A stretch of DNA of 64,000 bases, taken from NCBI GenBank assembly GCA_041661005.1, contig JBAZVG010000001.1, positions 735,515 through 799,514 on the forward strand, read 5' to 3'. Origin of the DNA: Minisyncoccota bacterium. Lineage in GTDB: Bacteria; Patescibacteriota; Minisyncoccia; Phycocordibacterales; UBA9973. Positions within the stretch are counted from its first letter, which is position 1; each line of letters opens with the position of its first letter. The position numbers and the translations under genes were made by a program. The notes beneath the pieces are model-generated. The model saw nothing but the letters and a program-made list of their open reading frames with translations. It searched no databases and was not told the DNA's origin. Shown one piece after another: positions 51,731 to 56,771 of this stretch.

Positions 51731-52470
51731 TTTACCCTGAGCTTAGTCGAAGGGTTTAAAAATCAGGACGAATGACACTTTGAAAATTTAATTCTTATCC
51801 TAAATTTGCTGGAGATACAATCTGTATGTCCGGGGTCTTTTTTGGAGATAAGAAAAAGCCAAAAGGTATTCTAGGTAGCGAGCGGTCGCAAACAGAATAT
51901 CTGTTAATTTTTTGGCTTAAAAATTCCCCGCCTATTTCAAGGACGGGGTAAAGTGGTTTTCAAATTTCTTAACAGGAAATTTAAGGGCGTACGGTGGATG
52001 CCTTGACTTTAAGAGGCGATGAAGGACGTGGCGTTGCTGCGATAAGCTTCGGGGAGGTGCTTAGCAACCTTTGATCCGGAGATTTCCGAATGGGGAAACC
52101 CTGTTGAGTATCCCTCAACAATTTTTATCTTTATGATAAAAGAGCGCACCCTGGGAAGTGAAACATCTCAGTACCAGGAGGAGTAGAAACAAATATGCAT
52201 TTCCCCAGTAGCGGCGAGCGAAAAGGAAGAAGCCCAAACTTTAGTCGCAAGACTAAGGGGTTGTAAGGTAGCAGTTTAGAATTTAATTTTTAGAAGAGTC
52301 AAAAAATAAGTTATTAGCTTAAGTTGCTGGAAAGCAACACCATAGGAGGTGATAGTCCCGTGAGCGAAAATAATTTATCTCTTTTATTGCTATTCTTGAG
52401 TACCCCAGGACATGAATGGCCGGGGGGAATCTAGCGGAACTAACCGCTAAGGCTAAATACTCTTAAAGAT

Positions 52471-52507
<37 letters not shown>

Positions 52508-54053
52508 CAGCCCGATTAGGGCGGTGAAATAGACCTGAAACCGTATGTCTACAAGGAGTCGATGCTCCGCTTCGGCGGGGCTACGGCGTGCCTATTGAAG
52601 AATGAGCCAACGAGTTTATTCATGTTGCTGGCAAAGCTGGCTAAAACAGCAGAGCCATAGGGAAACCGAGTGTTAATAGCGCGACCAGCCTCGCGTAGAC
52701 GCAAGTCTAGGCGGGCATTATAGTAACATGCATAAGACCCGAAACTAGGTGAGCTTGCCATGAGCAGGTTGAAGTAGGTCGAAAGACTTATGGAGGACCG
52801 AACCGGTAGATCGTACAACGTCTTCGGATGACTTGTGGTAAGGAGTGAAAAGCTAATCGAACCTAGTAATAGCTGGTTCTCTCCGAAATAGCTTTAGGGC
52901 TAGCGTCGTGTGTTTCTTTTGGGGGTAGAGCACTGGAAGGTTCGGACAGACCGCAAGGCCGCTGAACCTATCAAACTCCGAATACCAGAAGTAAGAACAC
53001 GGCAGTTAGGCTATGGGGGCGAAGCTCCATTAGCCAAAAGGGAAACAGCCCAGATCTCAAAATAAGGTCCCTAAATATATACTAAGTGTAAGACAAGAAG
53101 GTGAAGTTTCTTAAACAATGAGGAGGTTGGCTTAGAAGCAGCCATCCTTTAAAGATAGCGTAACAGCTCACTCATCTAGAGATTTTGCGTCGAAAATAAT
53201 TGGGGCTAAGTATATTACCGAATTTGAGGATTTTAATTCTGTTTACAGAACTAAAGTGGTAGGAGAGTGTTCCACTCTGCTGTGAAGGAAGACCCGTGAG
53301 GGCTTCTGGAGCGTGTGGAAGTAAGAATGTTGGCACAAGTAACCGCAATGATGCTGAGAACGCATCACGTCGAAAGATCAAGGTTTCCTTGGTAATGTCA
53401 ATCAGCCAAGGGTTAGTCGGGCCTAAGGGAATGGCGAAAGCCGTACTCGATGGACACAGGGTTAATATTCCCTGACTTCTGTATTTTGTGATGGGATGAC
53501 GGAGGGTAGTATGTATCGCTCATTATTGGATTTGAAGTTTGTGTCTTGATTGTGCTCTGTAGGAAAATCCGCAGAGTGCCTTAAATGGCGCATGAAAGAG
53601 AAGCAAAAAGTTTTATTCTTCGGGATAGGACAATGATACAAAGCACGCTTCCAAGAAAACTCTCTAAACTTATGAATATAGAATCCGTACCGCAAACCGA
53701 CACAGGTGATCAGGTCGATTAGACCAAGACGAACGAGTGAGTGGTCCCCAAGGAACTCGGCAAAAAAGCAGCCGTAACTTCGGGATAAGGCTTCCCTTCG
53801 ATTCGATACTGCGTATCTCACTCAGGGCAGGCCCCATTTAAGATTTCAATTTCTTATTGGGGTTTACCCTGAGCGAGGTGCTTAGCACCGAGTCGAAGGG
53901 CGCAGTGAAAGTATCTCTGGCAACTGTTTACCAAAAACACAGCTCCCTGCGAACTCGCAAGAGGATGTATAGGGGGTGACACCTGACCAATGCCAGAAGG
54001 TCAAATATCGCCGTTGGTAGTAGCAATATTATTAGTGAGTGATATAAGCCCTG

Positions 54054-54096
<43 letters not shown>

Positions 54097-54752
54097 ACCT
54101 TGTCGGGTAAGTTCCGACGCGCACGAATGGTGTAATGACTGGAGAACTGTCTCGGGGACCAGCTCGGTGAAAATACAATACCGGTGAAGATGCCGGTTAA
54201 GTGCAGTTAGACGAAAAGACCCTATGAAGCTTTACTATAACTTTATATTGAGCATGTTTTTGGACTGCGTAGAATAGATGGGAGAGGTCTGATGGATTCG
54301 TTCTTGGATGAATTCTACTCAACAGTGAAATACCATTCTTTTTGAAGGCATGTTCTAACCAAAACGGCAAAAACGTTTTGAGACAGTATATGGTGGATAG
54401 TTTTACTGGGGCTGTACCCTCCTAAAGAGTAAAGGAGGGGTTTAAAGGTCAGCTAGGCGCGAATGGAAACCGTGCCGATAGTGTATGAGCACAAGCTGGC
54501 TTGACTGTAAGAGGTACATCTCAAGCAGGTGGGAAACCAGAATCAAGTGAACCGACCACCCGTGTTAGACGCGGTGGAAGATTAACGGATAAAAGCTACT
54601 CTAGGGATAACAGGCTAGTTCCGCCCAAGAGTTCATATCGACGGCGGAGTTCGGCACCTCGATGTCGGCTCACCTTAGCGCGGCGGCGGAGAAGCTGCCA
54701 AGCGTTTGGCTGTTCGCCAATTAAAAAGGTACGCGAGCTGGGTTCAGACCGT

Positions 54753-55289
54753 TAAAATTATAAATTTATTTTTGTAGTTTTGACAGTTTGAACCCTCAGA
54801 GGAAAGTTTTGAACTTATGTTATAAAAATTAGTGAGGAGTAAAACAAAATTTATTTTTATTTTGTCCGAGCGAAATTTTTATATGAAATGTTTACATTTC
54901 ATATTTAAAATTGTTTTGTTTATGAAATTGAAAGATAGAACCAATCAAATCACGGCGGTCGCATAAAGTAATTTATGTAGATCAAGCTAATGAAATCGGT
55001 GAAGTCCACATGAAAGGGATAATACCGAGGGGTTTATTGTGTGCTAGTTAGTGGGGGAATATCATAGAAGACTCCAACCAAGGAAGTCTCGAGAACGACA
55101 CACTGTTCCGTGCCAAATCCTAGGAATGTACAGAGTACATGGAGCGCCTACCACTGTTGGTGACGATGCGAAAGCGTGTCGTCACCTCCACTAATCAGCA
55201 CATAATAAATTTCCGTAGAGACTAACAATTAGCCATCCTAGAATGGATGAAGATATAGTCCAATGCACAAAGTAATTTGTGATATCATG
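54753..55289 (+). other. intron 1 in 23S rRNA (ORF-less, ~537 nt) at the GAACGU|CGUGAGACAG site of domain V
   Basis: The flanking exons join to the conserved 'gaccgt|cgtgagacagg'. The upstream exon ends in U and the insert ends in G (group I-like). The 3' terminal ~45 nt are similar to those of intron 2. Confidence 0.6.
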
Positions 55290-55352
55290 CGTGAGACAGG
55301 TTGGTCTCCTATCTACTGCACTCGTTGATTCTTGAAAAGATTTGCGCTTAGT

Positions 55353-56176
55353 AAACCCGCAAGGGTTATTGCTACTTCCTGTAGAAATACAGGATGACAA
55401 TGTGGCTAATAACGGTGGAGTCTTCATCTATGTTTCTAGTCCGATGAAAAATAATATCGAACGGTCTTTGGTGTTATGGTTCGCTTGAGGACCAGAAATG
55501 TGATAAGATAATACCGTGGGAAGTCAATCTAAAATCAAATTAGCGTATATTGCCGGTTTTCTTGATGGAGATGGTAGTCTGATGCTTCAGCTTAAAAAGC
55601 GAAGCGATAGTAAACGAGCAATTCGTTTTATGACTACAATTTGTTTTTATCAAGACACTAGGCATGAAAAAACTTTGTATTGGATAAAAGAAGTTTTAGG
55701 TATCGGTTATATTTCCCATAGAAATGATGGAATGACTGAACTGCGAATAAATGGTTATAAACAAATAAGAGATATTCTTACAAGTTTGTTGCCATATATT
55801 CAATTCAAAAAACTTCAAGCTTATGCGCTTTTACAAGCATGTAAGGTGTTATCTGAAACAAAGTTCAGTAAGCTAACAAAAAGGCAACTATTTAAACTTG
55901 TCGATCTAATTTTAGTTATTCAAAGTGAGAACTATGTGACTAAAAAGAAGAAAACAATAGAAGAGTTGCATAAAGTTTTAGGTTTGACCCCGTAACGACT
56001 TATCTCTGACATGTGTCAGAGTGGACTTGCATGACGCTGGAAAGTTTCTTTCAGAAATTTTTTTTGAGAAACAGGCTTATGCTTGTAATACGCCAACATC
56101 CTCCTTCAGCATTATTTATTTTGTTGAAAAGGATGAAGATATAGTCTGCACTCCTAGAAATAGGGGATATAATGTG
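55353..56176 (+). mobile_element. intron 2 in 23S rRNA (~824 nt) inserted in the sarcin-ricin loop region (CUAGU|ACGAGAGGACC) and encoding a LAGLIDADG endonuclease
   Basis: The exons join to 'cttagt|acgagaggaccgg'. The upstream exon ends in U and the insert ends in G. It shares the 3' block 'ggatgaagatatagtc...gatata.atg' with intron 1. Confidence 0.6.
55516..55995 (+). CDS. LAGLIDADG homing endonuclease (single-motif, GTG start)
   Basis: 'KLAYIAGFLDGDGSL' is the LAGLIDADG motif. The 159-aa ORF lies inside the 23S insert. Confidence 0.85.
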   Translation: MGSQSKIKLAYIAGFLDGDGSLMLQLKKRSDSKRAIRFMTTICFYQDTRHEKTLYWIKEVLGIGYISHRNDGMTELRINGYKQIRDILTSLLPYIQFKKLQAYALLQACKVLSETKFSKLTKRQLFKLVDLILVIQSENYVTKKKKTIEELHKVLGLTP

Positions 56177-56457
56177 ACGAGAGGACCGGCGTGAACTGAC
56201 CTCTGGTGTACGAGCTGTCCTGCCAAGGGCACTGCTCGGTAACTATGTCGGGATTGGATAACCTCTGAAAGCATCTAAGAGGGAAGCCAGCTTTAAGATT
56301 AGGAATCGTTAAGAACCGTGAGAGATGATCACGTTGATAGGCTTTAAGTGTAAGGCGAGTAATCGCTTGAGCTGAGAAGTACTAATGTTTCGATTCCTGT
56401 TAAGAAATTTGGAAACCACAACTTGCCTCGCCGAAACCTCGGTGTAGGCGGGAAAAA

Positions 56458-56630
56458 TTGAAAACTGAGTATTGGGAGTGTTTGTGTATTAATGCGAGCT
56501 GTATTAAAGCTTTAAGGACGTGATCCTGCAATACACTGCACCCCCATTATGCTCTTTTTGCACTTTTGTAGCGCAAATATCGATCCGGTTTCAGCTGAAT
56601 TTCTCACTGAAACCCAATACTCAGTTTTCA
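56458..56630. repeat. ITS element bounded by 19-bp perfect inverted repeats
   Basis: 'ttgaaaactgagtattggg' at 56458-56476 is the reverse complement of 'cccaatactcagttttcaa' at 56612-56630. It lies between 23S and 5S. Confidence 0.7.

Positions 56631-56650: not shown

Positions 56651-56771
<121 letters not shown>

Follow-up and report, generated by a model that had tools for sequence, protein, structure and literature searches.

The 23S ribosomal RNA (rRNA) gene of a Minisyncoccota bacterium (assembly GCA_041661005.1) is interrupted by two long inserts, one of them inside the sarcin-ricin loop, and raises the question of what these inserts are and whether one is a copy of the other. The gene lies in a stretch of 64,000 nucleotides of contig JBAZVG010000001.1 (positions 735,515 to 799,514), which we call the window; coordinates are counted from its first letter, and all features described lie on the forward (+) strand. 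Comparison with related loci makes it very probable that the inserts are two independent group I introns, folding and splicing as such, and that the second encodes a homing endonuclease of the I-CreI family. An earlier, sequence-only reading of the window had described both inserts and had taken them for members of a single family. The description has held, whereas the shared ancestry is not supported.

Two inserts in a single 23S rRNA gene

Positions within 23S rRNA are given by the E. coli K-12 gene rrlB, in which GAACGTCGTGAGACAG begins at 2588 and AGTACGAGAGGACCGG at 2654. By the Rfam model of bacterial large-subunit (LSU) rRNA and alignment to E. coli, the gene spans 51970 to about 56393, and it is a single gene interrupted twice. 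Exon 1 (51970-54752; E. coli 1-2593) is defined by the LSU_rRNA_bacteria match and the rrlB alignment. It is followed by intron 1 (54753-55289), a predicted group I intron at L2593 of 537 nt, without an open reading frame (ORF) and ending in G55289, which the LSU model, rrlB and the family alignment place. A mini-exon of only 63 nt comes next (exon 2, 55290-55352; C2594 to U2656), located by the LSU model, rrlB and relatives. Intron 2 (55353-56176) splits the sarcin-ricin loop at L2656; it is a predicted group I intron of 824 nt with G56176 as its last base. Exon 3 (56177-56393, from the LSU model) runs from A2657 to the 3' end and shares 93-96% identity with Nomurabacteria and Patescibacteria genomes.

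A routine Rfam scan does not reveal this arrangement. At the gathering threshold the LSU match stops at 54824, yet is given with the full model length, and no intron is reported, so that both introns and the true 3' end of the gene near 56393 are missed; the 5S rRNA further downstream (56663-56770) is found by the default scan. The introns become visible only in E-value mode, in a rescan of 54400-56500. Here the LSU model runs on to 56393 (model position 2912 of 2925), and its printed alignment contains large inserts of 541 nt and 834 nt, the second of which spans 10 model positions.

The junctions can be read directly. Intron 1 lies between U2593 and C2594, with CAGACCGT followed by TAAAATT at its 5' end and ATATCATG followed by CGTGAGACAG at its 3' end, and a global alignment with E. 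coli puts it exactly at 2593/2594. Intron 2 lies between U2656 and A2657, with GCGCTTAGT followed by AAACCCG at the 5' junction and ATAATGTG followed by ACGAGAGGACC at the 3' junction. Its boundary is ambiguous by 1 nt because the intron and the 3' exon both start with A, which explains why the site is called 2656 here and 2657 in the published catalogue. Each intron is preceded by U and terminated by G. The sequence-only reading had given a 537-nt domain V insert without an ORF, an 824-nt insert encoding a 159-residue protein with a single LAGLIDADG motif, the U and G at their ends, and a position inside the sarcin-ricin loop; all of these are borne out, in the case of intron 1 to the base, and the LSU covariance model shows the same two large inserts. 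A 1263-nt contig in ENA is identical to the window over the 3' part of intron 1, the 63-nt exon and intron 2. The arrangement is not an assembly artefact, because it is also found in many independent genomes. The exons and the endonuclease are closest to Nomurabacteria and Patescibacteria genomes, and the host is, by these sequence affinities, a Nomurabacteria-like bacterium of the candidate phyla radiation (CPR).

The 23S gene has only one other sizeable insertion relative to E. coli in the global alignment, of 74 nt (53792-53865) near position 1704. A motif running from ACCCTGAGC to GTCGAAGGG occurs twice in the window, at 51734-51754 and 53866-53900, with 0 occurrences expected. The first copy lies just upstream of the 5' end of the 23S gene and equals the second minus an inner hairpin; the second directly follows the 74-nt insertion and continues into conserved 23S sequence.

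Group I architecture and the endonuclease gene

The generic group I model of Rfam, Intron_gpI, to which the sequence-only reading had pointed as a check, matches both inserts when judged by E-value: intron 1 over 54897-55282 (41.8 bits, E=9e-9) and intron 2 over 56037-56167 (32.2 bits, E=7e-6). Both satisfy the rule of E<=1e-5 that has been applied to CPR introns (PMC11270868). The generic model RF00028 is reported to miss introns that are detected by subtype models, such as those for IA3 and IB4 (Nawrocki et al. 2018, PMC6125680), and for this reason the fold was checked by comparison with relatives.

Relatives of intron 2 were collected by a protein-guided scan limited to one genome per species. 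This gave 34 loci, labelled almost all as Nomurabacteria, Paceibacteria or other Patescibacteria, of which 28 have an intron of 745-853 nt exactly between U2656 and A2657. Every one of these 28 is preceded by UAGU, begins with A and ends with G. When the paired segments P1 to P9 are drawn on the alignment, 87.8% of cells are paired across the 28 members, compared with 37-47% when partners are shifted by 1-2 columns. Compensatory changes are present in P2, P3, P5, P8, P9 and two extra hairpins, and P4, P6 and P7 are essentially invariant. RNAalifold, run on the 5' part without the drawn fold, recovered P1, P2, P4 and P5 independently.

The anatomy of intron 2 can be followed from its first base. 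P1 and P2, the latter with a GAAA loop, occupy 55353-55394; P1 is invariant in 28/28, and P2 shows up to 6 pair types per position. In P1 the exon bases UAGU pair with the guide GCUA (55371-55374), and the intron side is extended by a GCAA-capped hairpin. The 5' strand of P3, P4, P5 with an extension of about 90 nt, the 3' strand of P4 and the 5' strand of P6 follow at 55402-55527. Within the P5 extension, CUUGAGGACCAGAA (55484-55497) is invariant in all 28 introns. The 3' strand of P4, ACCGU (55513-55517), overlaps the GUG start codon at 55516, and P6 is formed by the first codons of the ORF, GGGAAGUCAA, and its last codons, UUGACCCC, with the stop UAA in joining segment J6/7. Since P6 is built from both ends of the ORF, the ORF fills the P6 loop. 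The remaining part (55984-56176) holds the 3' strand of P6, J6/7, P7 (GACU/AGUC), the two extra hairpins, the 3' strand of P3, P8, J8/7, P9 (GAAA loop), the tail and the terminal G. The hairpins, at 56004-56021 and 56029-56082, lie between P7 and the 3' strand of P3 (56092-56096), an IA-like arrangement in the Michel-Westhof scheme.

Three side observations concern this family and its loci. The invariant CUUGAGGACCAGAA resembles the 3' exon strand GAGAGGACCGG, and the intron partner CGGUCY could pair with either, the exon being invariant. An initial register for a helix in the P5 extension was rejected, with 0/28 members paired at two positions, and that helix is not claimed. In one Nomurabacteria contig (L012, 446-540), exon 2 runs straight into P4/P5 of the 2656 intron, CTATCTACTAC being joined to GGTGAAGTCTTCATC, which is either an rRNA-destroying deletion or an assembly error.

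In the case of intron 1, the core was aligned with seven genome-derived relatives taken from the same loci and not chosen by the guide motif. The guide, AUCACG-GCGGU, is invariant in all seven. In the window UCACG-GCGGU lies at 54950-54959, where UCACG can form a P10 of 5 bp with the 3' exon CGUGA, which is invariant and hence shows no covariation. GCGGU (54955-54959) forms a P1 of 5 bp with the 5' exon ACCGU, including a wobble between U2593 and G. P2 (GUAA loop), the 5' strand of P3 (GCUAAU), P4, P5 and the 3' strand of P4 follow at 54961-55030, as the alignment and its compensatory changes indicate. An extended, branched P6 arm occupies 55029-55214, with a predicted fold of -75.8 kcal/mol (z=-6.1). 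The 3' part (55215-55289) consists of J6/7, P7 (GACUA/UAGUC), the 3' strand of P3 (AUUAGC), P8, J8/7, P9 (GUAA loop), the tail and the terminal G, with zero hairpins between P7 and the 3' strand of P3. Covariation is seen in P2, P3, P5, P6, P8 and P9, and P7 becomes GACUG/CAGUC in locus L022, a single compensatory change.

Intron 1 also carries large peripheral insertions. Its guide lies about 200 nt inside the intron, behind a very large loop L1 of 22% GC; in the shortest relatives found (267-284 nt), about 85-118 nt precede the guide. The L1 insert recurs in L004 alone, with partial matches in L005, L009, L010 and L012. A 146-nt insert in P6 (55054-55200) is strongly structured and has 50% GC in an otherwise AT-rich intron; it was not found in any fetched related locus except the duplicate contig L003. 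Intron 1 holds no ORF longer than 47 residues, and a tblastn search for a degraded endonuclease with five LAGLIDADG proteins gave nothing below E=0.1. To widen the sample, metagenomes were scanned with the pattern CAATCNNATCACGGCGGT. Neither flanking 23S exon was found in 94 of the resulting 120 loci, and the examples of these that were examined are chance matches in GC-rich DNA; there were 21 complete introns, and the scan added 20 distinct members. The lineage now has at least 27 members, which occur with or without an accompanying 2656 intron.

Taken across the two families, the features expected of group I introns recur. The splice-site U pairs with a G of the internal guide in both introns, the terminal G is present in 28/28 relatives at 2656 and in 27/27 distinct members of the intron 1 lineage at 2593, and the P3-P9 core with its P3/P7 pseudoknot is backed by covariation in both. 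On this comparative evidence group I introns are present at both sites, and their boundaries are as first given.

The gene within intron 2 (55516-55995, identified in the ORF list and by Pfam) starts with GTG and encodes 159 residues with a single LAGLIDADG motif. The Pfam family LAGLIDADG_1 matches residues 12-94 in one stretch, with 43.7 bits against a cut-off of 23.1 (E=5.6e-11). The homology search suggested by the sequence-only reading finds I-CvuI (E=4e-18), I-MsoI (1e-11 or better) and I-CreI (4e-12) in the PDB. The motif, IAGFLDGDGS, holds the aspartate equivalent to D20 of I-CreI, and the equivalents of Q47 and K98 are likewise conserved. The ORF is intact in all 28 related introns at 2656. 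More than 3200 homologues can be found, the top 120 at 79-100% identity, and Nomurabacteria and Patescibacteria are among the few source names given. Homology places the intron 2 protein among the LAGLIDADG enzymes of the I-CreI/I-MsoI family, of the homodimer type; we infer its endonuclease activity and its target.

Several points weigh against this picture of two group I introns and a homing enzyme. Although both Intron_gpI matches pass by E-value, their scores lie under the 50-bit gathering threshold of RF00028, and the alignment of intron 2 to the model covers only the 3' 130 nt, with P1 and P2 wrongly assigned. P1 of intron 2 has only four exon base pairs, and by inspection its P10 amounts to 1-3 bp at most. 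Finally, the predicted sarcin-ricin-loop DNA target is poorly palindromic, with about 2-3 of 11 half-site positions symmetrical in a hand comparison, against 7 of 11 in the I-CreI site. Such poor palindromy is unusual for the target of a homodimeric enzyme.

Splicing, homing and the kinship of the two introns

The proposed course of splicing is that of group I introns in general. Within the pre-rRNA each intron would fold into a group I ribozyme whose guide pairs with the last exon bases, GCGGU on ACCGU ending at U2593 in intron 1 and GCUA on UAGU ending at U2656 in intron 2, with the splice-site U in a U-G wobble. Exogenous guanosine would then cleave after this U, the freed exon end would attack after the terminal G, and the exons would be ligated, restoring both the sarcin-ricin loop and, in the peptidyl-transferase region, helix 93. 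At the DNA level, the intron 2 enzyme may cut intron-less 23S genes at the sarcin-ricin-loop site, where GCGCTTAGT directly adjoins ACGAGAGGACCGG, and repair would copy the intron in (homing). Intron 1, which has no endonuclease, would persist by inheritance, possibly with help from reverse splicing or from the enzymes that related introns at 2593 encode. The rRNA insertions of CPR bacteria have been reported to be removed from transcripts (PMC11270868, citing Brown et al. 2015). We infer that both introns are actually spliced.

A first alternative is that the introns are group I in origin but have lost self-splicing, their removal requiring a cofactor, which could be a host factor or the LAGLIDADG protein in the role of a maturase. 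In its favour, both introns have a short P1 (4-5 exon bp), intron 2 has a weak P10, and folding of intron 1 could be slowed by the large peripheral inserts in its L1 and P6. Maturases of the LAGLIDADG type are known from organelles; intron 1, for its part, encodes no protein. Strong conservation and covariation of the core helices and joining segments are expected of an active ribozyme, but they fit self-splicing and protein-assisted splicing alike. The catalytic residues retained by the endonuclease speak for cleavage of DNA over a purely RNA role. We regard a loss of self-splicing as unlikely, though of the alternatives to two autonomous group I introns it survives best.

The second alternative concerns ancestry. 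The sequence-only reading had proposed that a shared 3' block, GGATGAAGATATAGTC, and the similar tails GATATCATG and GATATAATGTG mark a single intron family, with intron 1 as the paired, ORF-less copy of intron 2; one family would thus have spread to a second site and lost its ORF there. The shared sequences are present as described. The 16-mer occurs exactly twice in the 64-kb window (55245-55260 and 56131-56146), with 0.02 occurrences expected when up to 2 mismatches are allowed, and the segments P3-J3/4-P4-P5 and J6/7-P7 look alike by eye (GCUAAUGAAAUCGGUGAAGUCC and GCUAAUAACGGUGGAGUCU). P8 and J8/7 of intron 1 are also closer to the 2656 consensus than are those of its own nearest kin, which could reflect local gene conversion between co-resident introns. 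However, all 16 shared bases match the Rfam Intron_gpI consensus, aggaUgAAGAUAUAGUC, so that the block is generic and present in many unrelated introns of the same genes. For instance, a single related locus may contain the 12-mer GAAGATATAGTC in as many as five places. In L004 and L010, the nearest relatives of intron 1, GAACGTATAGTCC stands in place of the 16-mer. A profile built from the sequences of the 2656 family reaches only the last ~48 nt of intron 1 (13.5 bits) and leaves the 5' half unmatched. The architectures differ as well: in intron 1 the guide lies about 200 nt in, L1 is expanded, the P6 arm is long and P3' follows P7 without intervening hairpins, whereas in intron 2 P1 is short and two hairpins are added. 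Intron 1 is part of a separate lineage, whose members occur irrespective of a 2656 intron, and it contains no endonuclease remnant. Descent of one intron from the other is, in view of this, quite improbable.

The closer kin of intron 2 are found elsewhere. In the 23S gene of a Kazan bacterium (L023), the 2593 intron (2038-2781) carries an I-CreI-like gene, and its RNA is similar to that of the 2656 family. The 2656-family profile matches this intron with 51.7 bits over about 150 nt. The L023 enzyme shares 37% identity with the enzyme of the window, compared with about 29% for I-CreI, whose homology is established by the PDB matches. As judged from profile and protein, the 2656 intron is related to the endonuclease-bearing 2593 lineage and not to the neighbouring ORF-less intron 1. 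Ectopic transposition of CPR introns has been suggested by Tsurumaki et al. 2024 (PMC11270868), and the likeness to L023 fits such a jump between sites. Both sites could be read in 25 loci; an intron of one lineage or another (276-744 nt) occupies 2593 in 18 of them, and the site is empty in 7. The pairing of 2593 and 2656 introns is therefore common and not obligatory. Some of the fetched CPR 23S genes (L023; also L035 and L031) contain the 12-mer of the group I core four or five times, which suggests four or five introns each, and L031 has an insert after about position 2605.

An insert retained in helix 93 or the sarcin-ricin loop, or a break left unligated there, would be expected to destroy function. 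The least probable alternative is that RNase III cuts the inserts out as intervening sequences and the ends stay unligated, which would leave the 23S rRNA in fragments, or that the inserts are retained expansion segments: fragmenting intervening sequences do exist in some bacterial 23S genes, and short ones have been proposed at the CPR sites 23IS2 and 23IS4 (PMC11270868), but RNase III-type sequences are simple hairpins at other sites, while here a full group I core has guides matching both exons, the inserts split helix 93 and the universally conserved sarcin-ricin loop, and neither is the simple extended hairpin replacing a helix tip that characterises an RNase III-processed sequence.

A candidate exon-pairing element and comparison with known systems

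The two group I introns differ in one further respect, which concerns how the 5' exon is held. In L1 of intron 1 there is an 'anti-exon' element, UUGAACCC (54788-54795), complementary to GGGUUCAG in the 5' exon (54740-54747; E. coli 2581-2588). These exon bases lie immediately 5' of the five that pair in P1. The sequence ACAGUCUGAAYCC, containing the element as CUGAAYCC, is present in L1 of all members of the lineage (27/27 distinct). Across 24 members, 97.4% of cells in this helix are paired, compared with 26-46% when it is shifted. At exon position 2588 the pair in these 24 is G-C in 16, A-U in 6 and G-U in 2, with none unpaired; among the 27 distinct members, 17 have G-C, 3 G-U and 7 A-U, with 0 mismatches (Fisher p=1.4e-4, phylogeny uncorrected). 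All members with A instead of G at 2588 have U as the intron partner. The exon change is not tracked by the base after GCGGU, which makes P1 a helix of 5 bp that the second helix abuts. Given the order of the segments, the second helix would be a pseudoknot, or else an alternative to P1.

We put forward only tentatively that the ORF-less 2593 lineage binds its 5' exon by two separate segments, a minimal P1 of 5 bp and the L1 element. As a single position covaries, the anti-exon helix is a lead rather than a result. To our knowledge, pairing between L1 and the exon lies outside the standard group I model, as far as could be checked. Other 2593 lineages begin directly with UCUGA, a start that would give a hairpin whose loop contains the splice site; in two of these lineages a mismatch in that hairpin is left uncompensated. 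In the 2656 family, no intron column truly covaries with exon positions -12 to -5, where only a trivial Y-G compatibility is seen. If the pairing is real, the L1 element could hold the exon for ligation. Alternatively, it may be a switch that keeps the strand of the peptidyl-transferase loop unfolded until splicing, coupling splicing with large-subunit assembly.

Both insertion positions coincide with catalogued CPR hot spots, 23IS12 (2593) and 23IS14 (2657). In the survey of Tsurumaki et al. 2024, 82% of CPR 23S genes have insertions, LAGLIDADG_1 genes are concentrated at 1917, 1931, 1952, 2593, 2604 and 2657, the LAGLIDADG enzymes of rRNA introns are predominantly single-domain, and 222 group I introns of 23S genes lack an ORF (PMC11270868). 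The window agrees with these hot spots in host group, in both positions, in the group-I-like nature of the inserts and in the single-domain LAGLIDADG_1 type that predominates there (PMC11270868). The sequence-only reading had called LAGLIDADG introns established in CPR rRNA genes and had asked for its sites to be compared with catalogued ones; the host is a CPR bacterium and both sites are listed. It had also singled out the insertion in the sarcin-ricin loop as notable. The insertion stands, but its novelty is dated, since 2657 is a frequent CPR site (PMC11270868). We found no report of L2656 introns in the sarcin-ricin loop outside CPR, in a literature coverage that is incomplete. The window is thus another instance of a described class, and the intron pair occurs in many public Nomurabacteria genomes. 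That survey gives no secondary structures or splice-site pairings for the two sites (PMC11270868), and the present analysis adds the helices, the placing of the 2656 enzyme in the I-CreI family and the candidate exon-pairing element in L1.

Other systems share some of these features. Archaeal (DPANN) LSU/2593 introns of subtype IA3 occupy the same site as intron 1, many of them ORF-less and about 300 nt long, a size comparable to the shortest relatives of intron 1 (267-285 nt), and are also missed by the generic Rfam model, though their hosts are archaeal, unlike here (PMC6125680). I-ShaI is, like the intron 2 protein, a single-domain LAGLIDADG_1 enzyme from a CPR 23S group I intron, and it dimerises and cuts its own insertion site in vitro; it is encoded at 23IS7, not at 2656 (PMC11270868). 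The intron Cr.LSU of the Chlamydomonas reinhardtii chloroplast, which encodes I-CreI, lies between U2593 and C2594, the same site as intron 1, and the homodimeric enzymes I-CreI, I-MsoI and I-CvuI are sequence homologues of the intron 2 protein. The I-CreI ORF is likewise in the P6 loop of Cr.LSU. Unlike Cr.LSU, the 2593 intron of the window is ORF-less, and the I-CreI-like gene sits in the other intron, with a predicted target in the sarcin-ricin loop. The introns of the Coxiella 23S gene are at L1917 and L1951, in domain IV, and this host is a proteobacterium, unlike ours. As far as the 2007 study of that gene is reflected in a later citation (PMC11270868), its two group I introns lie close together and leave a mini-exon, as the 63-nt exon is left here.

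The general picture of CPR rRNA introns is unchanged by a jump between sites or by an extra exon-pairing element. The introns are of consequence mainly for annotation, since a routine pass could cut the 23S gene short and report the endonuclease as an independent gene. The sarcin-ricin-loop intron enzyme offers a natural I-CreI-like scaffold with a new predicted target. For the CPR introns themselves, the locus gives a worked example in which helices and splice-site pairings are spelled out for two hot spots so far catalogued only by position.

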